Source of the DNA: a virus
Reading direction: 5' to 3' (one strand)
IMG/VR virus record: IMGVR_UViG_3300030333_002778
Coordinates: 1 to 64,000 of that record
Length of the DNA stretch: 64,000 bases
Below the pieces are notes generated by a model that saw nothing but the letters and a program-made list of their open reading frames with translations, was not told the origin of the DNA and did no database searches. Every line of letters begins with the position of its first letter. The stretch's first letter is position 1. Shown here one piece after another: positions 6,526 to 47,300 of the stretch. The position numbers were made by a program, and so were the translations under genes.

Positions 6526-9092
6526 TAGTCTAAATTGTATCTAAAATTCATATCTGTATTTTTAAAGAAAGTTTCTCTATCTTCATATCCTTCAGTAACT
6601 TTATAATCCCAATCTACACCACGTACTGAAGGTTGATGTTTATTCTTTCCTGATATATAATCATTCCAATTAGTCCATAATAATTCACCTTTATCATTTG
6701 TTTTAGTTGGACTACATGTTATACAATATACATCGGTCAAACCATCATATTTACCTCCTTGTATTGGATTTTCTTTTCTAAATTGAACTGGGTCTAATAT
6801 ATACCTAGAATAAAATCTACCCTCCCTAGGTAAAGAATCGTCATATCCCCAACCTGGATTATCCTCTGATCCTACTAATTTATTTGGATTATTTTTAAAA
6901 TATTTTTGAAAATTATATCCATGTCCCATATTATAAGCTAACATAGCTCTATATTTTTTTTCGTTTGCATTTGGTGCGTCTACAATATAAGGCCTATCCA
7001 TTAACCAATCTAAATAAGTTGCTTGAAAGTATCTAGCTATTACCGGATCATTTGGATCAGCATCTTCAGGTAAATATCCTCTTTCTATCCACATATTCCA
7101 TGTTCTAGGTAAAGTTTGAGCTAATCCAAAAGCACCTGCAGAACTTGTTCTAGGATCACCATCTTGAAGTTGTAAATAGTTTTCTTTCCATAACATATTA
7201 TTTAACTCTTCATCAGTAAACCATTTATTCTCTATTTTATCTAATTCTTGATTATACCATTCTTTACTAAATTTCTTTATTTTTTTTTCATCATCACCAT
7301 TATTCTGAGGTTTTAAAGCCATTAAAGATTCCATTAATGTAGACTCTTCATTTGTGGAGGTAGGAGGAGTCGAACCTCCGTATTCAAAGCGGGGTACATC
7401 ACCACGCGATGACAAACCAAATCTACCCCCATGTCTAGCTCGTGCTCTGCTATGTCCATATTTAGCACGTACTCTATAATTATCAGATCTAGTTCTAAAC
7501 TTAAGAGTATCCATCAATGGATCTCCTGTTGTTGTCATTCTTCCACCATATCTAGCTGTTACAGTCTGCTGATTTTGTAGATCATCTATATTATATTTTT
7601 CAAAAAAATTTTTTATAATTTTTTTATTCTTTTCTGTTATAACATTCATAAGATATCTAATATTCATATCTTCATCTATAAATTTAGGATCATCATGACG
7701 ATATTCAGGAATTCTAAACCTTTCTATAAATCTTTCTAAAGGTAAAGTAAGTTTTCCATCACCAAATGAATCTAAATATTCTCGCCAATGTTCAGCTGTC
7801 ATCTGCTCATATCTATAATCATATATACCTTTATCTAGCATATCTTGTCTTATAGCTCCCATATCAGCATGAGTCTCTTCTGTATCCTCAAGATGACCTC
7901 CTTCGTTAGAAAAATTTAGAGCACTAAGCATTCGTTTTTCTCTTTCTGGTAAATAATGTGAAAATCCATGATGGCCTATTTCATGTGCTAAAGTTGATTT
8001 AATATTATCAACCCATTGTGGATGTATTTGATCCATATATGGACTAACAGTTACAGTTCCTAAAAGATCCTTCCATCTAGGATCATCAGGATTTTCATTT
8101 GCCATTCTTAAAATAGAGTTTATTTCTTTTTGATTCATTTTTGCACCTACATCATCCCATTCAAAAGGATAGTCATAATAACCCTCTCCCTGTGTACGAT
8201 CATAATAATTTTTTGTAGAATAAAGCTCTTTATGTATATTTGGACCTATTTTAAATGGCCATGCATATCCACCAGTAGTTTCATGATCTCCTATTTTTCT
8301 TCTACTATATATTGCATTTACTAAATTTGGGTATTTACCTGCCTCTTCACTATCTAGAAACTCGTCTAAATTCTTATATTTTTTTGTTATATCTTTATAA
8401 TTTAATATATCTGGATTAGCTTCATAGAATGCTGCAAGATGTTTTTGTTGATTAACTACATTATCACGTTGTCCAAGAAAAGTTAAATTTCCAAGCGCAT
8501 CTGTAAATAAACTCTTTTGATTTTTCCAAGATTTTCTTGGTATATTATCAATAAATCTACTATCAAAATCTAAAAAAGAATCTTCACCCATCCATTCATC
8601 TAATAATTCTTGTTCCTGATTATACTGTGTATATTTATTATTAATTGAAGGATATACTGAAAGAAAAGGAGTATTCTCTATAAACTCTCCTGAATATCTT
8701 CTCTCAGCTAAACTATCTGGATCTGTATAATACTCCATTAAATCTGAAATATAATTTCTATCAGGAACATTCATAGGATTGAATTCGTTTTTCATATAAT
8801 CAGACATTATAGGATTTGGCCAAACTCTTATATCCTTTCTTAAACCTTCAGTATCAATTTCATTAGAACCTTTACCTGTTATATAACCACGTTCATCTAC
8901 TAAATTTGGATATTTTGAATGTAATTCTTTTTTCTGTTGCTGAAAATATTTTTCTGGATTTTCTATACGGTCTTTTTCTTCCGCAGTTAATTTACTATCT
9001 TTCCTAGATATTTTATTAGCTTTTAGTTGATTTAATAACTTTCTAAAAACTCCAGGTTTTTTATTACCACCATTTTCATAACGTCTCCTCAT
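6525..9092 (-). CDS. 855-aa cargo-like protein with a zincin HExxH domain and a C-terminal lytic transglycosylase (SLT)
   Basis: TLAHEIGHH with downstream EETHAD; SLT motifs WKEN, SSAGAFGLAQ, AMLAYNMGHG. Confidence 0.78.
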   Translation of the reverse strand: MRRRYENGGNKKPGVFRKLLNQLKANKISRKDSKLTAEEKDRIENPEKYFQQQKKELHSKYPNLVDERGYITGKGSNEIDTEGLRKDIRVWPNPIMSDYMKNEFNPMNVPDRNYISDLMEYYTDPDSLAERRYSGEFIENTPFLSVYPSINNKYTQYNQEQELLDEWMGEDSFLDFDSRFIDNIPRKSWKNQKSLFTDALGNLTFLGQRDNVVNQQKHLAAFYEANPDILNYKDITKKYKNLDEFLDSEEAGKYPNLVNAIYSRRKIGDHETTGGYAWPFKIGPNIHKELYSTKNYYDRTQGEGYYDYPFEWDDVGAKMNQKEINSILRMANENPDDPRWKDLLGTVTVSPYMDQIHPQWVDNIKSTLAHEIGHHGFSHYLPEREKRMLSALNFSNEGGHLEDTEETHADMGAIRQDMLDKGIYDYRYEQMTAEHWREYLDSFGDGKLTLPLERFIERFRIPEYRHDDPKFIDEDMNIRYLMNVITEKNKKIIKNFFEKYNIDDLQNQQTVTARYGGRMTTTGDPLMDTLKFRTRSDNYRVRAKYGHSRARARHGGRFGLSSRGDVPRFEYGGSTPPTSTNEESTLMESLMALKPQNNGDDEKKIKKFSKEWYNQELDKIENKWFTDEELNNMLWKENYLQLQDGDPRTSSAGAFGLAQTLPRTWNMWIERGYLPEDADPNDPVIARYFQATYLDWLMDRPYIVDAPNANEKKYRAMLAYNMGHGYNFQKYFKNNPNKLVGSEDNPGWGYDDSLPREGRFYSRYILDPVQFRKENPIQGGKYDGLTDVYCITCSPTKTNDKGELLWTNWNDYISGKNKHQPSVRGVDWDYKVTEGYEDRETFFKNTDMNFRYNLD
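7355..7430 (-). ncRNA. tmRNA-like tRNA-like domain (Ala acceptor) embedded in the CDS
   Basis: Acceptor GGGGGTA/TACCTCC with G3:U70 and A73; perfect T-arm GGAGG-TTCGACT-CCTCC; stemless D-loop GATTTGGTTTG. Confidence 0.65.
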
Positions 9093-21833: not shown

Positions 21834-22300
21834 ATCTTTTTTTTCCTTTGATTATGATAATATTCAGTAGCAGGTGCTTCTTTCTTATCAAAGCAACTAT
21901 GTACATGCATATAATCAAAATCATAAGACCATGGATTTTTAAAATGTGATCCTACTATTCCTTTTTTAGAAGTCATTAAATATCCTAGGTTTTGACCTGA
22001 TTTATCTAATAATCTCCACATATATCTAGATGTTCCATCATTAGCTGGACCATGAAATGTAATTACTATTCCATGGGTATCACAATATTTCTTAGCCTCA
22101 ACTCCATCAAAAAAAGAATCATTACCCTCTAAATGATCTTTAGTGCAATCACATGCAACTATATCATAAGTGGCATTATCTACTTTAGCTTTGTCTGAAT
22201 CACTTAATTTATCATACTTAGCTTTACTCTCTGCTATAAGAGCATCTACTTCTGCTCTTTTCTTGATTCTTCTACGTTCTTGTTGTTCTTTAAAATCCAT
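21824..22300 (-). CDS. Hypothetical protein with Cys/His residues
   Basis: 158 aa; ACDC..DH, YCDTH, HVHSC; 3' end overlaps the tRNA. Confidence 0.6.
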   Translation of the reverse strand: MDFKEQQERRRIKKRAEVDALIAESKAKYDKLSDSDKAKVDNATYDIVACDCTKDHLEGNDSFFDGVEAKKYCDTHGIVITFHGPANDGTSRYMWRLLDKSGQNLGYLMTSKKGIVGSHFKNPWSYDFDYMHVHSCFDKKEAPATEYYHNQRKKKIAG

Positions 22301-22377
22301 TAGCTTCTTTTATATATCTTTAATATTCCTGCTGCAGTTATAAACGCTACTGCTACACAGATAGGACAAGGACACAT
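22300..22377 (-). CDS. 25-aa micro-protein with CPCPIC and a TM segment
   Basis: MCPCPICVAVAFITAAGILKIYKRS; TAATG overlaps at both ends. Confidence 0.6.
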   Translation of the reverse strand: MCPCPICVAVAFITAAGILKIYKRS

Positions 22378-22556
22378 TATATCTCAAATCCAAAATTTAA
22401 TAACATAAATCTAAATCTTTTACATTCTTTTCTTTCTTTTTTACATGAAGTGCTAGCACATAAGTAAAATTCCAGAATAGTAAGTATTCCAAATCTAAGA
22501 CTTATATTAATCTTATTCTTTTTATTTCCTTTTTTCCAACTGTTTATAAAATTCAT
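22377..22556 (-). CDS. 59-aa protein, first gene of the leftward operon
   Basis: MNFINSWKKGNKKNKINISLRFGILTILEFYLC...RFRFMLLNFGFEI. Confidence 0.62.
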   Translation of the reverse strand: MNFINSWKKGNKKNKINISLRFGILTILEFYLCASTSCKKERKECKRFRFMLLNFGFEI

Positions 22557-22584
22557 TTCGCTATAGTTTAATATTAATAGAAAA

Positions 22585-22592
22585 CAAATATA
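22585..22592 (-). promoter_or_regulatory. Bacteroidota -7 element for the leftward operon
   Basis: Minus strand TATATTTG about 29 nt upstream of ATG 22556; the -33 position reads TTT rather than TTG. Confidence 0.5.
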
Positions 22593-22716
22593 AAATAATT
22601 TCTTATAAAAAAAATATTTTTTATAAAATTTTTTTCATGGTGTATATTTAAAGATGCAGACCATTATTGGAATCTCCCCCCGGGCCCAACACCTCAATCA
22701 ACCCCCCGTGGGTCGA

Positions 22717-22748
22717 TTTTATGACCTACTACCATTACATATTATTGC
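22717..22748 (+). promoter_or_regulatory. Phage-specific early promoter candidate 1
   Basis: TTTATGACC-YANK-ACCWTTAC-N8-GC, shared with 23210 and 23621. Confidence 0.6.
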
Positions 22749-22780
22749 GTATAGAGAATCTTACGCGCAACTTGTTGATT

Positions 22781-23095
22781 ATGTCGCAAAGCACAGAATC
22801 TAAACAAGCGCAATACATAACTATTGCTATCTCAGCTATCTTCGGTGGTGATGGAGTCAATACTCCTTCTCCTAAGATGTGCAATGATGGTGTTGAGAGA
22901 TTCATTATGAAGACTCCTGACATCTGTGTACTACCTGAAGATGGTGGCAGACCTCGTATTGAGGAAGGTACTACAGTGTTCCTTGATGTTACTGAAGAAA
23001 ATGCTCAGTGGGTCGAGGTTGTCTGTGACCTGCTTGAGAAAGCAAAAGCTGATGGTCAATCTACTATTGAGATAGATTGGAAGCCAAAGGTGTAG
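22781..23095 (+). CDS. First early protein (probable start MSQSTESK)
   Basis: 104 aa; GC-richer codons than the rest of the window; follows the motif and a hairpin. Confidence 0.65.
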   Translation: MSQSTESKQAQYITIAISAIFGGDGVNTPSPKMCNDGVERFIMKTPDICVLPEDGGRPRIEEGTTVFLDVTEENAQWVEVVCDLLEKAKADGQSTIEIDWKPKV

Positions 23096-23209
23096 TTAGT
23101 GTTGAAGCTGAAGCCTGAGTGTCATTCACGGATATTAGTGCCACTTAGGGGAAGTCTCGCATAGCTTTCTTACTCAATATGCGCCTTTCGGGGTTATCTC
23201 TTTTTTTTA

Positions 23210-23240
23210 TTTATGACCCATGACCTTTACGAAAGTGTGC
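23210..23240 (+). promoter_or_regulatory. Phage-specific early promoter candidate 2
   Basis: TTTATGACCCATGACCTTTACGAAAGTGTGC after a T-tract. Confidence 0.65.
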
Positions 23241-23259
23241 AATCAATAACGTAATAAAA

Positions 23260-23430
23260 ATGAAAAAAACATATGATATTTACAATAACAAAAAGATTAA
23301 ACAGTTAGTAAAGCATTTCGTTGACATGCCTATGACTGAAGATAACTTTGAATTATTAAAGAAATTAGTATTAGATGACTTTGAAGAATATGTTGAGTGG
23401 TCTGATGGTAAACCATATACTAATTTTTAA
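23260..23430 (+). CDS. 56-aa early protein (not in ORF track)
   Basis: MKKTYDIYNNKKIKQLVKHFVDMPMTEDNFELLKKLVLDDFEEYVEWSDGKPYTNF; A-rich leader. Confidence 0.65.
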   Translation: MKKTYDIYNNKKIKQLVKHFVDMPMTEDNFELLKKLVLDDFEEYVEWSDGKPYTNF

Positions 23431-23437
23431 TTAAACC

Positions 23438-23536
23438 GAGATTGAGCTAGTGAAAATGAAGCATATGAAAACCCTATAAAGATAAGATAGAAGGGCTTAT
23501 TTAGTATTCATATGTGGATCAACCTAGCTCTTTCTC
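23438..23536 (+). ncRNA. Rod-like structured RNA candidate
   Basis: GAGCTAG/CTAGCTC closing stem with inner GCATATGAA/TTCATATGT and CCCT/AGGG. Confidence 0.45.
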
Positions 23537-23556
23537 ATGACTTTGTGTTGGTTGGT

Positions 23557-23624
23557 AAGATAATAAAGCTCTGAATAAGAAATGCTACTTAATTTATTTA
23601 TTCTTTATTATCTTTTCTTTTTTT
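23557..23624 (+). terminator. Intrinsic terminator-like hairpin
   Basis: AAGATAATAAAG/CTTTATTATCTT 12-bp stem followed by a T-tract. Confidence 0.5.
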
Positions 23625-23652
23625 ATGACCTAAGACCTTTACGGAAGTAAGC
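23621..23652 (+). promoter_or_regulatory. Phage-specific early promoter candidate 3
   Basis: TTTTATGACCTAAGACCTTTACGGAAGTAAGC. Confidence 0.65.
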
Positions 23653-23659
23653 GATAGTT

Positions 23660-23790
23660 GTTGTAATAATAAACATACTAAAATTATTTAACAGTTGTGA
23701 ACTCCTTGCTTGACTACTTAAAATCAATCAACACTAGAAGTAATGCTACAACAATGAAATTAACTGTAAGTATGTGTTATTACTTACAAC
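23660..23790 (+). ncRNA. Rod-like structured RNA candidate directly after promoter 3
   Basis: GTTGTAATAATAAACATACT pairs imperfectly with AGTATGTGTTATTACTTACAAC; inner ACAGTTG/TAACTGT. Confidence 0.45.
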
Positions 23791-23916
23791 ATTATCGTAC
23801 ACACATGTATTTAACACTTTTATTAACATTTGTATTATACTTATATTAATATATATATAGCGAAAGTATAATACACCAAAGCGAAGAGCACAATGTCATA
23901 ACTGTGCATATTTATT

Positions 23917-24609
23917 ATGGATTTAGAACAATTTTTAAATTCTTTAGAGACTGGTCAATGTGGATTAATCTCTTATCGTAGAAATAATGACTCTGAAGAT
24001 GGTACTAAAAACTTTAGTATAGAATTAGCAGAGAAAATTATTCCTCCTACAAGTAATACTAGTAATGCTATGAATGCAATATCATTATTAACTGTTGGAG
24101 ACAAAAGATTTAGTAGTCGAGGACATCGTAGAGCATGGCCTCCAGTTTCCCCAAAGTTTTTACTTCATTTAGGCGTAAAACAGGATGAAATTGACGCTAT
24201 GGACATTGGAGATGTAACAGAGTTATTCATCAAGAGTCCAAAAGCAATGAATAATCAATATTTAAGATTAAAGATTACTGAATTATTAGACAGTCAATTA
24301 GAAACACATTTTGCTAACTTTAAAAATGGTCAGAAACAAATTGCTTATATGAGAGCAAATCTTGATAAAATGGCTAAAAAGATGGGAGGTAAAGATTCTG
24401 ATTTCTTCATGAGTTTAAATGAAACTACTGGAGCATTAGAAAATGTATTTAGTTTGACTGATGTTGTTGCAGTACCAGAATTAGAACAAGATACTTCATC
24501 TGTTCATACTTGGGCTGAAAGATATGTAGAACAATCAAACATGAACTATAACAAGTCTAAAACTGAAGTTGTAGAGACTGTTGAGGCTGAAGAAGAGCCA
24601 TTTCTATAA
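23917..24609 (+). CDS. Early protein with acidic PFL tail
   Basis: 230 aa; C-terminus VETVEAEEEPFL. Confidence 0.7.
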   Translation: MDLEQFLNSLETGQCGLISYRRNNDSEDGTKNFSIELAEKIIPPTSNTSNAMNAISLLTVGDKRFSSRGHRRAWPPVSPKFLLHLGVKQDEIDAMDIGDVTELFIKSPKAMNNQYLRLKITELLDSQLETHFANFKNGQKQIAYMRANLDKMAKKMGGKDSDFFMSLNETTGALENVFSLTDVVAVPELEQDTSSVHTWAERYVEQSNMNYNKSKTEVVETVEAEEEPFL

Positions 24610-24620
24610 ATCTTAAATAT

Positions 24621-25172
24621 ATTAGAGAGATAGTATTAAATTATCCGTGATTTAGCTTTGCATGCTATCTCTCTAATATTTAATATAGCTATAATAGGTA
24701 CCTTTCTAGAAGGTCCTAATCATCGCGTCTTTATATTAGAGGCATCTATATAAAGTTAAGAACTTAGAGTCTTGTTAAAACGAAAAGAGTCAACTTATGT
24801 TGTATGATGTTAAACTTACTAGAATAAAGATAGGATCTAGTACTATTATAGTCTTTATGGAGATAACTAGTATTAGAGTAAATGACCCTGAAGCGTTTGA
24901 AAGTTAATGAAAGCTGCAGTAATTGTCATTAATGAGTAGTGGAGAAATTTACTCTAATGCTTTAAGTAAACTATACCATAATTTAATAGTATGGGTAGAT
25001 ATAAAGTAGATAAATTCACCTAGGAACTACACACGGTAACAGTGAACTAGGAAAAATAAGTTTGTTTTTATATACGGTAAACACAAACAGAAAGTAAGTG
25101 AGCAATCTATTTAGATCAGGTTTAACATGTCTTGTCCTCTTGATCGGCTTTGTGGGGTTGCTCACTTGTTTT
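24621..25172 (+). ncRNA. Structured ncRNA array A (about 5 closed-stem domains)
   Basis: Closing stems at 24621-24677, 24688-24852, 24870-24960, 24971-24998 and 25091-25172; no substantial ORF. Confidence 0.55.
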
Positions 25173-25201
25173 CACTAATGTTAAATTAAAAAATATAAAA
25201 A

Positions 25202-25318
25202 ATGAAAAGAATAATTTATACATTACTACTAATAGGACTATTCACGAGTTGTGCTTCTGGCAAAATAAACTCGTGTTGGAGTAGTAATGGAAAAACAATA
25301 AATGGTCTGTATAAATAA
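25202..25318 (+). CDS. 38-aa lipoprotein
   Basis: MKRIIYTLLLIGLFTS-CASGKINSCW...; lipobox FTSC. Confidence 0.7.
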   Translation: MKRIIYTLLLIGLFTSCASGKINSCWSSNGKTINGLYK

Positions 25319-25344
25319 ATGTTAAATTAAAAAAAATTACAAAA

Positions 25345-25752
25345 ATGGAAGAATTATTACATCGAGCAGAGATAATTATGGTAGTGCTATCTCTGATCGT
25401 ATTTGTTTTACTACTAATTTGTGCTAAACAACACAGTATAATACAAAATATGCAATCTTCAGCAGAAGAATCTATGCAGTTGTTTCAAGAATATAAAGAT
25501 TTAGTGAGGGAAAGATATGGTCCTTCAACTTACATGCTTAATCGTGACTTTGATCATAAGTATGAAATTGATATATTTGAAGATGATGATGATCCATCTA
25601 TAAAAACAGATGGTAAAGGTGGTGTACTTTATTATAAAACTAGAAAAGATATGTTTATGGATAATCCTTGTACAAAAGAAGAATGGGAAGAATATCATAA
25701 ACATAAAGATTTTCATGATCAATATCAATTTATAATAAAGAACGATGATTGA
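25345..25752 (+). CDS. Membrane-anchored early protein
   Basis: N-terminal TM IIMVVLSLIVFVLLLIC; 135 aa. Confidence 0.7.
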   Translation: MEELLHRAEIIMVVLSLIVFVLLLICAKQHSIIQNMQSSAEESMQLFQEYKDLVRERYGPSTYMLNRDFDHKYEIDIFEDDDDPSIKTDGKGGVLYYKTRKDMFMDNPCTKEEWEEYHKHKDFHDQYQFIIKNDD

Positions 25753-25843
25753 AATATTTATAATAAGCCTATTTGCAGGGATAGCGATAGGCTTATACAT
25801 ATCAAGTCAAATTAATCGTTGGATAGATAAAAATAGTAAATAA
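25745..25843 (+). CDS. 32-aa single-TM micro-protein
   Basis: MIEIFIISLFAGIAIGLYISSQINRWIDKNSK. Confidence 0.6.
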   Translation: MIEIFIISLFAGIAIGLYISSQINRWIDKNSK

Positions 25844-25845
25844 TT

Positions 25846-25935
25846 ATGAAAAGAGATGAAATTCAAACAACAGCATTACTCATAGCAATAGTAATATTCT
25901 ATGTATTAATGCTTTTAATAATGATAACACGATGA
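25846..25935 (+). CDS. 29-aa single-TM micro-protein
   Basis: MKRDEIQTTALLIAIVIFYVLMLLIMITR; ATGA overlap with the next gene. Confidence 0.6.
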   Translation: MKRDEIQTTALLIAIVIFYVLMLLIMITR

Positions 25936-26117
25936 AAGAATCAGCATTTTATAATATAAATATGAAAGGTAAACGTGAACCTAATGAGTCTAGAGAAGAC
26001 TATAAAGCACGTATGAGGGAGGTGAAAGAAAGAACAAAATTACATTTAAAAGGAAGAATAATATGGGACAGTAAAACTCTTGGTACATATATCAAGAAAT
26101 TACATGGCCCATTATGA
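25932..26117 (+). CDS. Small basic phage protein
   Basis: KREPNESREDYKARMR...LKGRIIWDS...GTYIK. Confidence 0.7.
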   Translation: MKESAFYNINMKGKREPNESREDYKARMREVKERTKLHLKGRIIWDSKTLGTYIKKLHGPL

Positions 26118-26121
26118 TGTT

Positions 26122-26744
26122 GTGGGATGGAGTATATCGTAAGAATACTTGAGGATTTTTAGTTGATTGTAATTATTTTTTGTCCTTTCATGCATCCCAC
26201 TTATTAAAGGGGAATTTAGTATAGTGAGTGGCGCGTTGCTATACACATTTTTGCTGACATAATCTTGGATGGTTTCCCCAGTATACAAAGAGGAGTGCTC
26301 GATATAAGACGAGGTTATTCACGCATTCGTACATGTAGTTTTAAAAGTTCCATCTTAATTCAAGCATGTGAGAGCTCCTCTGTGATATAAACAAAGAAAG
26401 ACGGAAGACCGTTAGACTATTATTAATTATAATTGTAACAGGTTATAAACGTTAGTTTAATAAAGAACGTCACTATGTAGAAAGAGGTTATCCATTTATC
26501 TTCGGATATTTCGATGAATGATCATTGTAATTGTGATCTGATAGATCTGTAGTTAATTCTACGGGGAGAATCAGCATAGTTACCATAGACTGTCATGAAG
26601 TCTTTCACTTGTTTATGTATTAGCCAGTGATATGGATATAATAATAGATAAGCCGGCCAGCTTATCGCGGGAAAGTAATCCGTATTGGATGACTTAACAC
26701 AATAGTGTTAAACCCATTATTATTGAAGTATCACTAGGCTGATA
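26122..26744 (+). ncRNA. Structured ncRNA array B (5 abutting closed-stem domains)
   Basis: Closing stems at 26122-26200, 26209-26279, 26282-26389, 26387-26616 and 26618-26744. Confidence 0.6.
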
Positions 26745-26867
26745 CGCTTATAGCAAATACTATTATCATTATGATAATGTATAAATATTTAGTTATGTCT
26801 ATTCTCATTGAATACAATATACATATCTAATGTTACAAGAATGTTAAATTAAAATTAAATAATTATT

Positions 26868-27107
26868 ATGTTTTGGAAAGATGCAGTAAATAATAAATAT
26901 AAACATCTGATGAATTTAGTACCAGATGTTAGAAAGAAAGCTAAACTCCCTTATTCTGTCAATGTATTAGACGAGAAATTGGTAGAGTTAGAAAAAGAAT
27001 ACAACCGATTACAAGAACTAGACGCTAGTGACAAAGATATAACAGAAATAGAAAACCTTATAACAGATTTAAAAAGTTCCATAACTATATTGATTATTGG
27101 AACATAA
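26868..27107 (+). CDS. Hypothetical coiled-coil protein
   Basis: 79 aa; preceded by AATGTTAAATTAAAA leader. Confidence 0.65.
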   Translation: MFWKDAVNNKYKHLMNLVPDVRKKAKLPYSVNVLDEKLVELEKEYNRLQELDASDKDITEIENLITDLKSSITILIIGT

Positions 27108-27119
27108 TTATTATCTTTA
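27090..27119 (+). promoter_or_regulatory. Host-type promoter variant upstream of the replication module
   Basis: TTG-N19-TATCTTTA (one mismatch to TAnnTTTG). Confidence 0.45.
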
Positions 27120-27134
27120 TAAAAACGTTAATAT

Positions 27135-27215
27135 ATGTGGATATTAAAAGTATTAATTGCACTAGGAATCTTATATAGTTTAGGATATTTATTCAACTCG
27201 TGGGAAGAACAATAA
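27135..27215 (+). CDS. 26-aa single-TM micro-protein
   Basis: MWILKVLIALGILYSLGYLFNSWEEQ. Confidence 0.55.
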   Translation: MWILKVLIALGILYSLGYLFNSWEEQ

Positions 27216-27217
27216 AT

Positions 27218-27424
27218 ATGAGTTATATGAAATGGTTATCGACTCTTACCAAGGATGAGGTAGAGGAGATGAGAAATGAACTTCATAAAGCTGTAGCCAA
27301 CAAACAAATCAAATTAAAATATAAGGATACAGAATATACTACTATGAAAATGAGTAGTATAATAAACTATATGGATGATTTCTGGGAATTTAAAAATTGT
27401 GTAAAATTAGAAAAGGAGGATTAA
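27218..27424 (+). CDS. Hypothetical protein (probable start MSYMKW)
   Basis: 68 aa, following the 26-aa ORF. Confidence 0.6.
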   Translation: MSYMKWLSTLTKDEVEEMRNELHKAVANKQIKLKYKDTEYTTMKMSSIINYMDDFWEFKNCVKLEKED

Positions 27425-27440
27425 TTTCCTCCTTTCTTGT
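27409..27440 (+). terminator. Hairpin/terminator before polA
   Basis: AAAGGAGGA-TTAATT-TCCTCCTTT followed by CTTGT. Confidence 0.55.
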
Positions 27441-27482
27441 TAATAGCATGTATAAATATATACAGAAGTAAAAATTTAAATT

Positions 27483-29354
27483 ATGAGTAAAATAGTATTA
27501 ATTACAAATCAAAAACAAATAACGACTCCAAATTGTCCTTTTGAAATAGGAACAATGGAAGAGTGTGTAGATTATTTGAAAGGTCAACAATATATAGCTG
27601 TTGATACTGAAACTGAGGGTAAGGATTTCACCCGCAAAAAAATAGTAATGTTTCAAATAGGAACAAAAGAAATTCAATATGTTATAGATACTAGATATAT
27701 ATCTATAGAACCACTAAGAGATATACTTGAAGATACAGAATATCATGTAAAAATATTTCATAATATTAAGTTTGATTATAAGTTTATTAAATCAAATTAT
27801 AATATTGAAGTAGAGAATATTTATGATACTATGTTAGCTGAAGGTGTATTACATTGTGGTAAAGATAAGCACGGATACAGCCTTAACCGCCTAACACAGA
27901 GGTATTTAGGGGTGACGCTTGACAAAGAAGTTCGTAACAAATTTATAGGATTAGATGGTAAACCATTTACTGCTGAACAAATTTGTTATGGAGCTAAAGA
28001 TGTACAATATTTGATTGAAATTATGGAGACTCAATTAGATCAGATATTTAAACTAGAATTACATTATGTATTAATACTAGAAAATAAAGCAGCTTTAGCT
28101 TTTGCAGACATAGAATATAATGGTCTATGTTTTGATCAAGACTCTTGGCTTAAGAATGCTCAGGTAAATGAAACTGAAGTTACTTTACTCGAACAAGAAT
28201 TGGATCAATGTATTGTTGATAATAATCTAGATGATTTTATTTCTAATCATGTTCAGCTTGATTTCTTTACACCTGTTGAAGATCTTCGTAAAGTCAATGT
28301 TAAGTGGTCATCTCCTATGCAAGTTAAGAATGTAATGGAAAGACATTTAGATACATCACTTGAAAAAGTTAATGCATTTGAATTATCTAAATATAAAGAT
28401 AGACCATTTGTAGGTAAATATCTTAAATATAAAGAAAAACAAAAGATATTAAGTACTTATGGTAAATCTTTTCTTAAATATGTGATGAAAGATGGTAAAG
28501 TCAGAACAAGCTTTTGGCAAATATTAAATACTGGGCGTGTGTCTAGTGGATCTAAAGAGGATCGTAAGCCTAATATGCAGAACATTCCAGCGAGGAATCA
28601 GTTTAGGAATTGCTTTCATGCAAGAGATGGACACAGTATTGTATCTGTTGATTACAGTGGGCAGGAGTTAGCTATTATTGCTTACGGTTCTCAAGATCCT
28701 GTTTGGATTAAATGTAGAAAGAATAATGAAGATCTCCATTCAGTATGTGCTGAATTAGTATTTGGTGATAAATGGCATACAGGTGATAAAAAGAAATTAA
28801 GAAACATGATTAAGACTATTAATTTCGGATTAGCTTATGGTATGAGTAAGTTTAAATTATCTGATACATTAAATATTGATGTAGATGAAGCTGATGAACT
28901 TATAAAGAAATACTTTAGCGCATTTCCTAATATAAAAGCATTTTTAAATAAACTTGGATGGTATGGTGTTATGAATGGTCATATTAAAACTTTTAAACCT
29001 TTTAGAAGAATTAGATGGTTTGAAAATTGGTATGCAGGTATACATAATTCATATAAAGATTTCAAGATTAAAGGAGCGATTGAGCGTGCATCTAAAAATA
29101 CTCCTATTCAAGGTACAGGAGCGGATATGATTAAACAATCTATGATTCTCATAAGAGAAGAGATTAAGAAAAATAATTATCCTTGTTACATGGTAACACA
29201 AGTACATGATGAAATAGGTGTAGAAGTTAAAGATGATTTCGCTGAAGAATGGGCTCATATACAATGTGAGTTAATGAAGAAAGCTGGTAAAATGATTGTT
29301 GATGGATTTGAAATGTCAGTTGATTATACAATAACTAAAAAATGGAGTAAATAA
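27483..29354 (+). CDS. polA: Family A DNA polymerase with 3'-5' exonuclease
   Basis: ExoI VDTETEG, HNIKFD, YGAKD; TGRVSS, motif A VDYSGQEL, motif B KTINFGLAYG, motif C QVHDEI. Confidence 0.96.
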   Translation: MSKIVLITNQKQITTPNCPFEIGTMEECVDYLKGQQYIAVDTETEGKDFTRKKIVMFQIGTKEIQYVIDTRYISIEPLRDILEDTEYHVKIFHNIKFDYKFIKSNYNIEVENIYDTMLAEGVLHCGKDKHGYSLNRLTQRYLGVTLDKEVRNKFIGLDGKPFTAEQICYGAKDVQYLIEIMETQLDQIFKLELHYVLILENKAALAFADIEYNGLCFDQDSWLKNAQVNETEVTLLEQELDQCIVDNNLDDFISNHVQLDFFTPVEDLRKVNVKWSSPMQVKNVMERHLDTSLEKVNAFELSKYKDRPFVGKYLKYKEKQKILSTYGKSFLKYVMKDGKVRTSFWQILNTGRVSSGSKEDRKPNMQNIPARNQFRNCFHARDGHSIVSVDYSGQELAIIAYGSQDPVWIKCRKNNEDLHSVCAELVFGDKWHTGDKKKLRNMIKTINFGLAYGMSKFKLSDTLNIDVDEADELIKKYFSAFPNIKAFLNKLGWYGVMNGHIKTFKPFRRIRWFENWYAGIHNSYKDFKIKGAIERASKNTPIQGTGADMIKQSMILIREEIKKNNYPCYMVTQVHDEIGVEVKDDFAEEWAHIQCELMKKAGKMIVDGFEMSVDYTITKKWSK

Positions 29355-41025: not shown

Positions 41026-41373
41026 CTACTCTTCATGTCCGGGATTTAATAGATATCTAATCAATTTCCCCCTTTTTTCAGAACGCGACTTATTCGCTTT
41101 TGTAATATTATCTTTTATTTGTTTAATATCCGCGCATATTTCATACTCTTCTGTGCTTTCAAAATAATCTAATAGAACATCAAATACTGATCTATCTTCA
41201 TATTCAGTTAAAAGCCAGAAAAAAGTATTAGGAAATATACTAAAGTCATAATTACTAAGTATTAATCTATAAGTATTAATCATAGATGATCTTTTAATTA
41301 TTTCTTTTTCTTTTTCACTAAATTCTTCTTCTTCTTCGAAATCATCGTTAAAATTATCAAAACTGTATTTCAT
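41026..41373 (-). CDS. Small protein with UVR-like motif
   Basis: LLDYFESTEEYEICADI; coupled to the RNAP gene. Confidence 0.6.
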   Translation of the reverse strand: MKYSFDNFNDDFEEEEEFSEKEKEIIKRSSMINTYRLILSNYDFSIFPNTFFWLLTEYEDRSVFDVLLDYFESTEEYEICADIKQIKDNITKANKSRSEKRGKLIRYLLNPGHEE

Positions 41374-44300
41374 TATTTAAGATCAAAGAATTTTATTTTA
41401 TCTCCAGGATGTGTATTCCATTCCTTAAATGGTAATATTCTCTTAAAGTATTTACTTATTTTAGCATCTCCTTTATCATAACCTCTAGTCTTTCTCTTAT
41501 ATCTTTCAAAATCTCCACCTGTTAATACAGATGTTAAATCTGATGTACCTTGAGAGAAGAATTTATATAATGCTTCTAGTCCAGACATACCTGCCATTGG
41601 TGTTCTTAATATATCAAAGAATGCAGTCGTAGGTAAGTAGAATAATAATTCTGATTCTACCCTTTTGATCGTATATAAAGCCTGCCATTCTGCTCTACTA
41701 AGCTCATCATCTTCTTTATCTCCTCTTATTCTTCCAGGTAATATTAATAACAACATTAAGAAAGCTATTTCTCCTAGCGCTCTTTTTAAATTAGCTTTTT
41801 GCCATGTAGGTAATTCTTTATAACGTTTACCAAATTCAAAATTAAGTTGTCTAGCTTCTTTAAACATAGTAACTATAAATTTAGCCGCGGTTACATAGTT
41901 TCCTTCTACTTCAGACATCAATCTTTCATTATAATCTGCTTTTTTATAAGGAGATTTAGCATCATAGATTACTTTTTCTATTCCTTCAAATCTTCTCATT
42001 GCTCCTGGTCTAAGCCATTTACGGAACTGCATAGCTGCTCTACCCATTGCATATTGTTGTAAAGCTGCTCTGTCTGATGAATTATAAATACCATGCATTC
42101 TTTGATAAACTGCTTTTACTCTTTCTATAAAATCAGTTTTATCTCTATGTGTAAATTGTTCTGCTACTTCAGGATTTAGTACTAATCTTTTATCTTTTAC
42201 TTTATATGCATCCCATAGATTAATATATTTACCACTAGATAACTTAAACTGCATATTCATCATTTGTGCAATAAATAATTGAGACTGTATTCTGTGCTCT
42301 CCAGCCGACATCATAAAATAAATAGCTCCTGGGTTTAAAGATCTAATAAAGAAATTTTTATGGTCTATTCTTTGTCCCGCTTCATTAAAATTGGATAAAA
42401 CATCAAAGTTTTCTAATAACATTCCTAATTTTGAAGTAGGTCTTCTTGATGCGACATCATTTATTATTCCAGGTAATGATAAATTGTATTTAGCAGTACT
42501 CTTTCCATAAGTTTTTAAATTTAGATATTGTCCTGCAAAAGCTTCTACCCAGTTTAATAACATACCAAACCCTGCATTAGATAAACCAACGTGTGGGTTT
42601 AATGCTAATACTCTTAATGCATTATAATTAATAGCAAGATCTACTAACTTAGTGTCTGTTATCTGTCTAGTTCCTCCGCCTAATGTTTTAATAGTCGAAC
42701 CTTTTTTCTTTTTCTTTTGATAAACAATCATATCTAAATAATCGTTAAATCTATCATAAGATCTTGAAATTTCACCTGAATAAGTTATTTCTTCTCCAGT
42801 TACCTTATCTACTATAGGCATTCCTTTACCGCTCAGTTTTCTTACTTGTCTGTGTTTTAATAATTCCTTAGTCATCTCTAACTCATTAATAATAGTTTGC
42901 ATATTATTATAGTTATTAGCCATTGTAAAGAATTGTCTTAATGAGCTTCCCAAGTCGTAAGATACTTCTTCTGGAGTAAGATCAAAATTCTCACCAGTTC
43001 CTATCTTCAAAGTATAATGTGTAGGGACATAACTTAAAGGCTCTCCTGTTTTTGAAACTATTTCACCATAAGATGTTTGATCATCCCCAACAGTAAAGTA
43101 ATCTATAAGTGTTTCTTTAGCTGTTCTTTTTAGTTTTTTATCAGACTCTAATAATAACTCTGCTTTTGAAGCTCTAATAGATGGTAAGAAAAATCCTGTT
43201 TCTTCAGTCCCTCTTCTATATTGCTGTTCTAATAATGTATTAGCATATTTAAAGTTCTCTATAAAATAATTATAGAATATTTTTCTTTGATCTCCTTCAG
43301 GTAATGCTTGTAATTTTTTATACTGCTCACTATATTCTATAGGATTATTTTTAAAGAAATTAGACCAAGTATCTTTACTAGATAAATTTGTGCCATTTTG
43401 TATACTATCTCTAACAAATTTTCTTTTCTTTTCATACCATTCGTATGTATGCTGATTAAGAATTCTTCCAGTTAACTTTCCATCTTTAGTTTTTTCAAGC
43501 ATAAAATCATAAAGCTCTCTAAAACTATTTGTTCCTACCCCTTTTGAAGTTTGAAATGCTTCTAACTTCTTAATACGTTCATACAATCCTATATCCTCTT
43601 TACCTGTCCCGTATAAAAACTTTTGTTCTTGTTCATGTGTTTTATATACTTGTTCTTTAACTAATTTATCAACAGCTGCTAATACTGAATCTTTAGAATC
43701 CCCCATAGCATCTAGCCATCTAGCTAATAAACTAATATCTCTTCCCGCTTTTACTAATTCATTTTGTATAAACTCTTCTTTATTTTCAATTCTAGGATCT
43801 GAAATATAATCAGATAAGAAATTTGCTAATAAAGGTCTTCCTAAAGCTTTATATAATTCATATACTTTTTGTCTTTTATAAATAGCAGGAGCTACAATTT
43901 CATTTATTTCTTGTTCGTAGCCTTCGTTAGCTAATAGCGGAGCAGCTAATGATATTTCATCTAACATATCATATGTCTGAACAAATTTTAATACTTTATT
44001 CAGCTCTGGTATATTAACAGAACTAGTTGTTTCAAGTTCTCTTAGTTTATTGTATGCTGCATCAATATCTGCATTAGCTCTTCTCATAAATAGAATAAGC
44101 CCTTCTTTTTCTCCGATCTCATCTAGCTTTCCAAGTAAATCTTTTAATCCTGTTACATATTCTTTTGCATCTTTTTGTCGTTGTAATGAAGCTATTTTCT
44201 TTTTAAGATTGTTCTTAGCTGTTTCAAATATTTGCGATATCCTATCAGTCTCTTTATTAGCTTCTGCTTGAGCTCTTTCATTATTTGGATTTAAAAAGTT

Positions 44301-47300
44301 AAACATGTTTTTTAATGTCTTGTTCTTTATAGGCTTAAGCTTTTTAAGTTTAGAAGCTACAGGACTAGCTGGATTTAATAAATCAACACTAGTCATAATT
44401 ACTTCTCCTGCTTTATTAATTGTAACATCAGCTTCTAAGCCTACTATATTCATTTCGTCTATTTTTATTCCTTTATTCTGAATAATATATCTATATAGCG
44501 AAAGTTGTAATCTATACTGATTAAGTAAGTTATTAGGAATTGTAGCTAAAGGGCCTGTAAAAGATGGTAATTGAGACTCTAATGTTAAGAATTTACCTTT
44601 CATTTTAGTTTTAAAGTCATGTATAATTCTTTTTCCTGTAGATGTAACCTCTATAATATCTACTTGACCTCCAATAATATCACTTTTATCTGCTACTTTT
44701 GTTTCCGTGTACAATCTACTTCCAGCTGTTATTTTAGATCTAACCCAAGCTCTTAGTTTAGGTAAGTTCTTATTAATAGCAGCTTTAGAACTAGTATCTA
44801 GATTTAAAGAATCTATTATTTGTTTATCCGTTAAGTTATTTACAATACCTTCCATGGTTTTGTGTAATTGCGTACCAACACCATCTTTTAAGAATTCCCA
44901 TAATTTTTCTACTTTTTCAGATGTATTAAAAGGATTACCTGCTCTTCTATTAGCAGCTGCTACTTTTTCAGCTATTTCTTTAGAAGCAAATGGTTTAGAG
45001 AAAGCTTCTATAAAAGAAGTCGTTCTATTTAATTTTATACCATCTAATTCATAGAAATTATTTTCAGTAGTAGGATCTTGAATCCTATTACTTTCATTAA
45101 TCATCTGTGAAAAGTTTTGTTTTTGATTGTTTAAAGCATAGTACTTTTCTACTCCTAAATTATCTATATTTAAACCGGTTATATCTCCATTTAATATACG
45201 AGAAGCCATAGGTCCAAATACATTATCTAATTGTTGTCTAAGCTCATCTTTTGCTTCTTGGTTTCTAGTAAATAATGCTTTTATTTGGTCCCATATTTTT
45301 CTTAACGTTCCTATGAATCCTTTGTATTTTTCTCTAACCTGCTGTTCATTTACTATATATTCAGCTAATATCTTACCTGCAGTTTCTTTTTGGAATTGAT
45401 AGTCTTCTGTATATAATTTTTCATAATCTTTTACGACTTGGCCGTATAAATCTGTTTTAGAAGCTAGTGCTAATAGTCTTTGAACTGTAGGCTTATCTTC
45501 TAATGCTTCTATAAAGAAGTGACTTAATTCCTCTGGTACAGTATATCTATCTCTATTCTGATCTAAATACATAATTCTATTAAGCATATCAGCTGCACCT
45601 ACTGCATCTACACCTAATTTTTTCTTAAGATTATTAATAGTTACTGCTTTAACTCCAAAATGTTTTTCAGCAAATCCTATTAAATAATTATCTAGATCTT
45701 TCAAAGCAGACTCTTTCATTTCTGGGCTTAATCTATATTCAAGTGTATTATTTCTACTTGTTATAGACCCTGAATCAAACATATTTGTTTGTGGTTGAGT
45801 ATTTTGCTCTGTTTTATTGGCAGGATGGATACTTTCGTATCTTTCTTGCGCATACATTTCTACAAATCTGTATCTTTCTCCTAAAGGAGGTATTTCTTGG
45901 TATATTGCACCATTTAAATTCCCTGAATTTGTTTCGCTAGCAGCTAAAAATTTATATAATCTCCATTTACCTGCATTATATGATCTAAAATAATGTACAA
46001 ATTCATTTGAATTTGGAACAGCACCTTCAATTATAAGATTTGGGTTTTGACTTTTATGTAAATAATGTTGATTAGCCTTTAAATTATGCGCTTTAATTAA
46101 TTGCGGAGTTCTATGAAGAACTTTTTTATCTGCTATTTTTAAGAATCCAGGATCTGTAAACATATTTCTAATAATCTGATGAGTAGCATTTAAGAAATAC
46201 TGATCATTCCACATTGAATTAGCCTCTGTTCTAAAGTAATTAGTCAATCCTGAAGATTTCCAATAGGATACTGGAACAAGATCTACAAAAGAATTAGGTC
46301 CTTTCATTAATCCTGAAGTAACAATAGAATACGATATTAAAGATTTAGCTAAATTTGCTACATCTTCTCTAGGGTCTAATAATAATTCGGCCCATCTATC
46401 TGTTATCTCTGATCTTTCTGATGGGTCTAGTTTAACACTATTATTAAATGCTATTAATTGTATAAATTTATCAGAACTTAAGTTATCAGGATGTGCATAT
46501 AATAAGCCTAAGAATGGGTCATTAAATAAGTCGTGTTTCTTTTTAATTTTAGCTAACCTAGAAGCTAATGATTTTTGGTATTTGAATAATACGTTTTCAA
46601 GACTTTTTGTTCTAACTTCTCCTGATTTAGTATAAAATAATCCTCTCATAGGAGAATCAGGTTTAATTACAGAGAAATATAAACCTAAACTATTAATAGT
46701 ATCTATATTTTGTGGTGATAATATACCATCTTCTTGACCTGTTAATTGTGCTATATTTCTTTTTAATTCTATAAACCCATTTTTATTAAATGGAATAAAG
46801 AAACTTGTAAATTCATTAGCGGATTCTATACCATATGTTATGTAAGACTGTACTCTCTTAGGTATTTTAGTAATTTCTATAGCAGATTTACTACTTTGTA
46901 TATAATCTACATTATCCATAAATTGTTCTAGGTAACTTAATCTACTAAATCGTTTTATACCATCTGGTGATAAATATCTATTACTTTTTGAAACATCTTT
47001 TGCTACTTTTAAGTATCTCATAAAGTCACTTAAAATTTGTATTTGTTTTTTAAGATCTGCTTCATTTGAAAGATCTGCTTGTAAACCTGTATCATTTAAA
47101 TAAGATGCAGTAGGAGTAAATTCTATTAGATTTTTTCTATTTATATTATTATAATAATCTAGTTGGCCTAATTGTTCTGCAGTAGTTCTAGCAATTTGAG
47201 CATGATTAGTAAAAGCAGGCGCATTTTTTACATTTTGTTCTAATTTTCTTATAATAGGCTGATTTATAAAATCTAATGCAGTTTCAACATTAAATCCAGC

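Follow-up and report, generated by a model that had tools for sequence, protein, structure and literature searches.

A Structured Non-coding RNA Locus with a Conserved Core and Exchangeable Cassettes in the Early Arm of a Marine crAss-like Phage

Introduction

The crAss-like phages are among the most abundant in the gut and the ocean and, to our knowledge, the only transcriptome available for any of them is that of phi14:2. Two long early intergenic regions of this Cellulophaga phage, located at the g004–g005 and g005–g006 junctions, were reported to be abundant from the first time point, to be transcribed above most genes, and to persist late (Drobysheva et al., bioRxiv 10.1101/2020.03.07.982082). 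Here, we ask what is encoded by a stretch of about 750 nt within the early arm of an uncultured marine relative, which a first-pass annotation of the DNA had read as a row of five abutting, closed RNA domains without a substantial open reading frame (ORF), and whether these domains are independent RNAs, parts of a single RNA, or something other than RNA.

Results

Genomic context of the RNA arrays

The stretch analyzed here (herein referred to as the window) comprises the first 64 kb of a viral record of 89.5 kb, the source of which is an uncultured marine crAss-like phage. Structural genes, including those of the major head protein and the large terminase, are oriented leftward from about 22300, and an early/replication arm that includes PolA (27483–29354) followed by a helicase is oriented rightward from about 22650. 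A leftward ORF of 5153 aa (41373–56834, − strand) carries the sequence DFDID at residue 2977, which is the catalytic motif of the crAss-like virion RNA polymerase as described for gp66 of phi14:2 (bioRxiv 10.1101/2020.03.07.982082); judged by this motif, the ORF is a virion RNA polymerase homologue, and it exceeds phi14:2 gp66 more than twofold in length. The closest PolA sequences among GenBank phages belong to the gut crAss-like phages cr108_1 and IAS virus (about 30% identity), and the nearer relatives (PolA 59–80% identity) are marine metagenome contigs only; the loci retrieved from relatives are denoted L001, L002, and so forth.

Internal gaps of at least 250 nt that are free of ATG-initiated ORFs of at least 45 aa are rare in this 89-kb genome: there are only three, all in the early arm (a further gap at 199–495 was left out of this count, as it is covered by a gene running off the record end). 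The gap of principal interest, array B, extends on the + strand from the stop codon of a 61-aa ORF to the ATG of a 79-aa ORF (26118–26867). A second ORF-free structured stretch in the same arm, array A (24610–25200, + strand, z −4.7), has almost no homologue in relatives, and DNA runs from other samples contain strains with module-sized deletions or replacements within it (24681–24873); in the same strains, a 56-aa ORF (23260–23430) is replaced by 13 bases.

Among the neighboring genes, a 230-aa early protein (23917–24609, + strand) is conserved in all relatives (22–30% identity), where its gene likewise precedes the RNA loci, and residues F65, G69, R71, K154, N168, and H197 are invariant. It has no sequence match in Pfam, PHROG, or the PDB; its AlphaFold model has a mean pLDDT of 70, and searches with this model returned nothing better than E 0.2 in Foldseek (the weak rows include SSB/OB-fold chains) and a best Z of 3.1 in VIA-align. 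The order of small early genes around the RNA locus varies. The 61-aa ORF that adjoins array B upstream (25932–26117, + strand) has a homologue in L001 (3547–3732), and in L001–L005 this ORF is instead found downstream of the array, after an 82-aa ORF. A 617-aa ribonucleotide reductase lies between the RNA locus and PolA in distant relatives (L020 3804–5657, with equivalents in L006–L024), and the window's own group has no ribonucleotide reductase gene between the two.

Two sequence motifs recur in the early arm. The motif AATGTTAAATTAAAA occurs in exactly three copies in the window (25177–25191, 25318–25332, and 26840–26854), each with a small early ORF whose ATG follows 12–14 nt later; we regard it as a candidate signal for the start of early or middle units. 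The first copy marks the end of array A and the third that of array B together with the box that follows it, and no copy precedes either array. Given that there is no start motif ahead of it, array B probably forms the 3′ portion of an early transcription unit. The sequence TTTATGACC-N5-ACCTTTAC is present in three co-oriented copies (22717–22738, 23209–23236, and 23621–23648), each following a T-tract; relatives of both PolA groups contain 30–38-nt matches to this stretch, which is a candidate early promoter for the virion RNA polymerase.

Array B is a noncoding, strand-specific structured locus

Array B is a noncoding, + strand, structured RNA locus. The lack of a substantial ORF over about 750 nt was upheld: no ATG-initiated ORF of at least 45 aa is present on either strand of 26118–26867, the longest ORF with any start is 41 aa (compared with a mean maximum of 52 in shuffled sequences), and no ORF of array B is shared with relatives in position or sequence. 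Recoding was considered and rejected, as no single-stop reassignment opens the interval. A group I intron or split gene was likewise rejected; the flanking ORFs are independent, have their own stop and start signals, and are ordered differently in L001–L005. The GC content is 33–35% in array B and 25–30% in its flanks. The array contains no tandem repeat and no tRNA, and neither ARAGORN nor RF00023 identifies a tmRNA in 26118–26867.

The minimum free energy (MFE) fold of the whole region on the + strand (26110–26760) has an energy of −173.6 kcal/mol (z −3.78), which improves on the mean of shuffled sequences by 29 kcal/mol and is equaled by 0 of 20 shuffles; the − strand reaches only −142.9 kcal/mol, such that the + strand is better by 31 kcal/mol. 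All five of the closing helices described in the first-pass annotation are recovered in this + strand fold, along with the gaps of 0–8 nt between domains. That annotation had also considered such tiling hard to attribute to terminators, and indeed no + strand terminator-like site, with a GC-rich hairpin ahead of a U-run, was detected in 26118–26867. The domains are nonetheless unequal in the significance of their individual + strand folds (z −3.2 for D1, −0.9 for D2, −2.3 for D3, −3.5 for D4, and −7.1 for D5), with that of D2 not significant (32 of 200 shuffles are as good), and in their conservation: D4 and D5 are conserved together as a single unit, D1 and D3 behave as exchangeable cassettes, and nothing beyond its own helix supports D2. 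The picture of five separate domains therefore stands with regard to the closing helices and not with regard to five equivalent parts.

Domains D4 and D5 form a conserved, covarying core

The core comprises a multi-helix half, D4 (26387–26616, + strand), and a long-stem half, D5 (26617–26745, + strand). To describe it across phages, we used an alignment of 18 sequences from both the close and the distant groups of relatives (alignment A8), from which a consensus was derived by RNAalifold and mapped to the window. In D4, this consensus places P1 at 26390–26400 with 26603–26613, P2 at 26410–26413 with 26466–26469, P3 at 26418–26422 with 26458–26462, and P4 at 26473–26477 with 26584–26588 (all on the + strand), and the helices are joined by the conserved segments AUAAAG (26460–26465), UCAC (26470–26473), and GACUG (26588–26592). 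The apical hairpins P3a and P3b and the full 6 bp of P4 are placed out of register by MAFFT. D5 is closed by an 18-bp helix (26617–26634 with 26727–26745) that has one conserved bulged A and encloses a branched interior.

Covariation, which had been put forward as a check on the domains, is present in D4–D5: the A8 consensus has 40 pairs, 25 of which show compensatory changes, and each of the core helices (P1–P4 and that of D5) includes pairs changed on both sides. Across the alignment, 95.3% of cells are paired, compared with 78.2% for column shuffles, none of 500 of which attain that level, and 31–45% in slid controls in which the 3′ partners were moved by 1–3 columns; the covariation score is 0.511 versus at most 0.108 in the slid controls. 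Within the D5 closing helix, 98.8% of cells are paired over the 18 sequences and 7 of the 18 pairs are compensatory. Frequent G–U pairs, which would be A–C on the other strand, assign the core RNA to the + strand.

The same architecture can be followed outward through the relatives. Five IMG/VR relatives with PolA 77–79% identical have an ORF-poor gap of 830–1000 nt in the same place, the last ~300 nt of which (the 3′ part of D4, D5, and the box beyond) retain 82–89% DNA identity. At a PolA identity of about 65%, the gap in relatives is shorter and lacks BLAST similarity, yet these phages keep the D5 closing helix, with its single bulged A and with compensatory changes. The order of elements in the distant relatives is P1, P2, a small internal loop, P3 (which closes a three-way junction), GUAAAG in place of AUAAAG, the return of P2, UCAC, P4, a variable insert, the return of P4, GACUG, and the return of P1, so that both UCAC and GACUG are kept as well; one to three bases then separate the P1 return strand from D5. 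The interior of D5 is about 95 nt here and 30–60 nt in the more distant relatives, and the core as a whole is about 360 nt here and 250–460 nt in relatives. Since P1 and the D5 helix are always adjacent, we read D4 and D5 as a single two-armed RNA, the two arms of which probably stack on each other.

A profile HMM built from A8 (nhmmer) identifies 43 loci, or about 40 once contigs counted twice across collections are considered, all belonging to one marine crAss-like clade with PolA at least about 60% identical; it identifies none in phi14:2 or in relatives with PolA 25–43% identical. A covariance model of 100 positions covering the 5′ half of the core (CM R1) scores D4 at 53 bits (E 1.5e-7) and recovers L035 and L037, neither of which belongs to its seed, without further matches. 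We considered and dropped a pseudoknot pairing the UUAGUAGUG joiner with the P3 region, as it is not kept across relatives. A hairpin within D5, GAUAAGC-CGGCCA-GCUUAUC (26647–26666), is invariant in six aligned close relatives and absent from the distant group; the palindrome GGCC in its loop could permit loop–loop dimerization.

Upstream cassettes are gained, lost, and reordered

Upstream of the core lie self-closed units separated by short A/U-rich spacers, and it is these that differ from phage to phage. D1 (26122–26200, + strand; cassette type M1) is a three-way junction composed of a closing stem, a hairpin whose loop is UAGUAAU-like in relatives, and a helix containing U-rich internal loops beneath a variable hairpin cap. 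This architecture also occurs in L001, L002, L004, L034, and L037, and its closing stem varies in a compensatory manner (GUGGGA/UCCCAC, GUAGGA/UCCUAC, UAGGGA/UCCCUA, and GUGGGG/CCCCAC), as read by eye and from single-sequence folds. D1 has no BLAST-level identity to other loci, and MAFFT with RNAalifold yielded no consensus for its homologues, which we attribute to register shifts. D2 (26209–26279, + strand) is a hairpin domain seen in this phage and near-identical strains only; it has no homologue in any fetched locus, and its position is occupied in relatives by a different cassette, M2′. D3 (26281–26388, + strand; cassette type M3) has a core helix at 26289–26296 with 26374–26381, and the span of 26282–26389 given earlier takes in a weaker outer extension. 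It is common to L002 only (75% identity), with the stems kept and the differences located in loops; no compensatory change is found between these two sequences.

The resulting unit orders are M1, a unique unit, and M3 in this phage; M1, a palindromic hairpin, M2′, M-K, and M3 in L002; M1, M2′, and M-K in L004 and L036; M1 and M2′ in L034 and L028; M-X and M2′ in L035; M1, M-X, M2′, and M-Y in L037; and a tRNA-like element, a hairpin, M1, and M2′ in L001 and L003. Cassette M-K, which lies inside array B in L002, L004, and L005, is located in another gap of this genome (23437–23540, + strand). Independent shuffling of domains among phages, one of the tests proposed for the array, is thus borne out by the 5′ units and not by D4–D5. 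Conversely, the suggestion that the array might be one large structured RNA is not supported for the array as a whole, because its 5′ part differs between close relatives.

An AT-rich conserved box (26745–26866, + strand) extends from D5 to the next gene, is near-invariant across six close sequences, and ends with the third AATGTTAAATTAAAA copy, 13 nt before the ATG. Just after D5 it contains a small hairpin composed of A and U only (26761–26780, + strand), which is kept in close relatives and draws no terminator call. A related motif follows D5 in distant relatives at 12–35 nt from its end.

The RNA belongs to an uncatalogued family

Set against Rfam, the array B RNA is an uncatalogued family. 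The Infernal search that the first-pass annotation had called for (Rfam 15, cmscan) gave no match at gathering score anywhere in the 64-kb window, and at E up to 10 over 22300–27500 it gave only chance-level matches of 16–24 bits, none within D1–D5; the sole such match near the array (26741–26794) runs from the last bases of D5 into the following box. The families tested include GOLLD, ROOL, tmRNA, group I/II introns, 6S, RNase P, and Y RNA/YrlA, and known families hence do not account for the domains; a Y-RNA-like stem was set aside in the absence of an Rfam match. BLASTN in distant mode with 25900–27000 found no match in 50,697 GenBank phage records. A 19-mer scan of IMG/VR added one new true member (L028) and one chance match, to a giant-virus contig (L027). 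Bacterial and archaeal genomes scanned with a structural pattern yielded no host-genome copy, the two matches being chance occurrences in coding DNA with noncomplementary arms; the same pattern in IMG/VR retrieved loci of the same clade only. More than 10,000 unnamed candidate viral RNAs are listed in one paper (PMC10690425), and that list may include this family.

Parts of the array are present in RNA libraries

Two RNA runs from one marine metatranscriptome sample, selected for holding this stretch, were compared with 23000–28500 as assembled contigs of low depth. Both contain a 172-nt contig identical to 26228–26393, that is, the 3′ half of D2 together with D3, the last matching base of which lies 4 nt past the D3/D4 border; one of the two also contains a 174-nt contig (depth 17) with a D4/D5 junction of the L002 type. 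Contig coverage of the array is partial, with D1 and most of D4 outside it, and across these 5.5 kb the two runs contain no credible contig on the flanking genes (a 38-nt piece at 25628–25665 with 6 mismatches was taken as spurious). These contigs are weak evidence that parts of the array are present in RNA, and contigs on the array with none on the genes agree with the report that early intergenic RNAs of phi14:2 are both more numerous and longer-lived than mRNAs.

Translation-related RNA elements at equivalent loci

A tmRNA is present in phi14:2 (NC_021806, 4031–4502, + strand) within the second of its lncRNA regions (g005–g006), with the tag GSSVQKLAMVA as predicted by ARAGORN and a score of 46 bits against RF00023 (cut-off 47, E 2.6e-16). 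No tmRNA feature is among those listed for the first 14 kb of NC_021806, nor is this tmRNA described in the phi14:2 study (bioRxiv 10.1101/2020.03.07.982082). The only tmRNA-like element of the genome studied here is a bare tRNA-like domain of alanine type on the − strand (7352–7430; G3:U70, T-arm, ACCUCCA end, 34.3 bits against RF00023), which lies in frame inside an 855-aa virion ORF. A homologue of this domain with G3:U70 is located in array B of L001 (2357–2433, + strand) and of L003, and in L001 it is the only copy in the genome; L002, L011, and L014 have no tRNA-like element, and the element thus appears to be mobile or sporadic. Loci equivalent to array B do, therefore, collect translation-related RNA mimics.

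Discussion

A tentative model of array B

The structure of the array, the strand that carries it, its conservation and modularity, and its presence in RNA libraries are matters of observation, and we tentatively favor, at somewhat less than even confidence, an explanation in which array B is a + strand locus for stable, trans-acting early RNAs with a conserved D4–D5 core and swappable cassettes. Under this model, array B would be read in the sense of the early genes, lying at the 3′ end of an early unit that the injected virion RNA polymerase transcribes. Its constant layer is the D4–D5 multi-helix junction (P1–P4) set directly against the long bulged helix, and its variable layer the self-contained hairpin cassettes upstream, which are gained, lost, and reordered among related phages. 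The folded units may outlast the decaying mRNA part as stable RNAs, as was reported for phi14:2, and we infer that they act in trans. The conserved core would be required early in infection as a specific scaffold or sponge for protein binding, and the cassettes would be accessory decoys for host RNA-binding or RNA-cutting factors, a role consistent with the tRNA-like and tmRNA cargo that relatives carry at the equivalent locus. Indeed, that cargo is the main reason for which we lean to trans-acting RNAs. The clade-wide conservation of the core is not typical of arms-race cargo.

The same arrangement can also be read in cis. The locus always lies at the end of a unit, just before the next gene-start motif, and a cis role consequently fits its placement equally well; the same holds for both arrays if they are the 3′ ends of early units. 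The RNA might act on the early transcripts themselves by stopping or insulating the virion polymerase, blocking 3′ exonucleases, or serving as a substrate for RNase III-type processing, with its abundance a by-product and the early-gene hairpins of T7 a precedent. Both arrays end just before a AATGTTAAATTAAAA copy, D5 ends 12–35 nt before the equivalent motif in distant relatives, closing helices of 15–18 bp suit double-strand-specific nucleases, and no copy of the start motif stands ahead of the arrays. However, a junction of 250–460 nt with conserved joiners and four covarying helices goes far beyond what a stop or stabilizer needs, no terminator-like site was detected, and cis action leaves unexplained the conserved-loop cassettes, the tRNA-like element, and the tmRNA at equivalent loci; we accordingly consider it unlikely, yet deserving of serious attention. 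That the RNA is a leader or riboswitch-like sensor for the genes directly downstream seems to us quite improbable. The conserved unpaired joiners of the core, and the position of D5 directly upstream of the next ORF in distant relatives, would suit such a sensor, but in the window's group a conserved box of 120 nt with its own start motif and without alternative terminator/anti-terminator pairing intervenes between D5 and the ATG, and the small downstream ORFs are not conserved between the two groups even though the RNA is.

A DNA-level element, either a replication origin or single-stranded DNA hairpins for the injected polymerase as in phage N4, would be in keeping with the adjoining replication module (PolA at 27483), with the AT-rich conserved flanking DNA, and with the preference of the phi14:2 virion RNA polymerase for single-stranded or denatured templates in vitro (bioRxiv 10.1101/2020.03.07.982082). 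It is at odds with strand-specific pairing rich in G–U pairs, with compensatory changes that keep helices and not sequence, with the existence of RNA-library contigs, and with the lack of iterons or tandem repeats in the locus, and we give it only a small chance. A single giant ornate RNA of the GOLLD/ROOL kind extending across the whole 620–750 nt is very unlikely; its size, its carriage by a phage, and the tRNA-like neighbor in relatives are all as expected for such an RNA, but the 5′ 270 nt are replaced piecemeal among close relatives as the 3′ core stays, and relaxing the Rfam search to E up to 10 yields no match. An explanation by short translated ORFs or by a recoded gene can be discounted almost entirely, for although ORFs of 30–60 codons can be drawn, none exceeds shuffled expectation or shows conservation of position or sequence, the region stays closed under any single-stop reassignment, and its indels do not come in multiples of three.

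Implications of putative trans-acting early RNAs

A bolder version of the trans-acting model, which we regard as improbable, is that array B is an RNA-only island for host takeover or counter-defense, in which D4–D5 would be a specific ribonucleoprotein or catalytic core and the exchangeable cassettes, as mimics of tRNA, tmRNA, and other RNAs, would neutralize RNA-targeting defenses of the host, all without translation. If true, the D4–D5 core would be needed as soon as the injected polymerase starts. The locus also suggests that RNA may serve a phage for its earliest functions, ahead of any protein synthesis. Judging from the tRNA-like element and the tmRNA present at equivalent loci, possible targets include translation and RNA-cleaving defenses. 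The locus provides a concrete, covariation-backed model for the early intergenic RNAs of crAss-like phages, and with core helices and joiners defined and cassettes that vary between strains, the question of what such RNAs do becomes testable.

Comparison with known systems

Large multi-helix RNAs borne by phages are exemplified by GOLLD (RF01998) and ROOL (RF03087), ornate RNAs of phages and prophages that are often found beside tRNA-like genes and, in the case of GOLLD, are better conserved in the 3′ half. Array B resembles them in kind, and its 3′ half is likewise the better conserved; unlike them, it has no cmscan match to either family, whether at gathering score or with E relaxed to 10, its conserved unit is smaller (250–460 nt), and its variable part consists of discrete, exchangeable hairpin cassettes. 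T7 has RNase III processing hairpins between its early genes, which are single and about 60 nt in length. As at those sites, conserved stem-loops here lie between early genes and abut gene ends in a phage with its own RNA polymerase, but the chains formed here have at least five domains, among them a four-helix junction that covaries.

RNA-based counter-defense offers a further likeness, by analogy only. Pseudo-ToxI repeats, Racr solitary CRISPR repeats, and phage tRNAs that substitute for cleaved tRNAs of the host share with array B an early, fast-evolving, cassette-like locus with translation-free RNA products, and the tRNA-like element and tmRNA at the equivalent locus of relatives extend the parallel; unlike the ToxI and CRISPR types, the window's array has no tandem or CRISPR-like repeats, and it has no tRNA. 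Among the roles suggested in the first-pass annotation was that of an antitoxin mimic. Type III antitoxin RNAs consist of tandem direct repeats of about 34–36 nt ahead of an endoribonuclease toxin gene, and this form is contradicted by the absence of tandem repeats; the downstream 79-aa ORF, moreover, has no family match.

The system had also been called apparently undescribed, which proves not to be wholly so in view of the early intergenic lncRNAs reported for phi14:2 (bioRxiv 10.1101/2020.03.07.982082). These are the closest published parallel, albeit by position and kind only. No homology to the phi14:2 RNAs was found with the core HMM and CM R1 against the whole phi14:2 genome, the upstream proteins of the two phages are unrelated, phi14:2 has PolB where this phage has PolA, and the second phi14:2 region holds a full tmRNA, unlike the arrays of the window. 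What the two phages have in common is layout: in each, the early rightward arm contains at least two long stretches free of genes, the virion RNA polymerase has DFDID, and the RNA is in the sense of the early genes, and array B, as a long ORF-free stretch of that arm with its RNA in this sense, follows the same plan. Array B is thus a well-resolved further example of the early noncoding RNAs of crAss-like phages.
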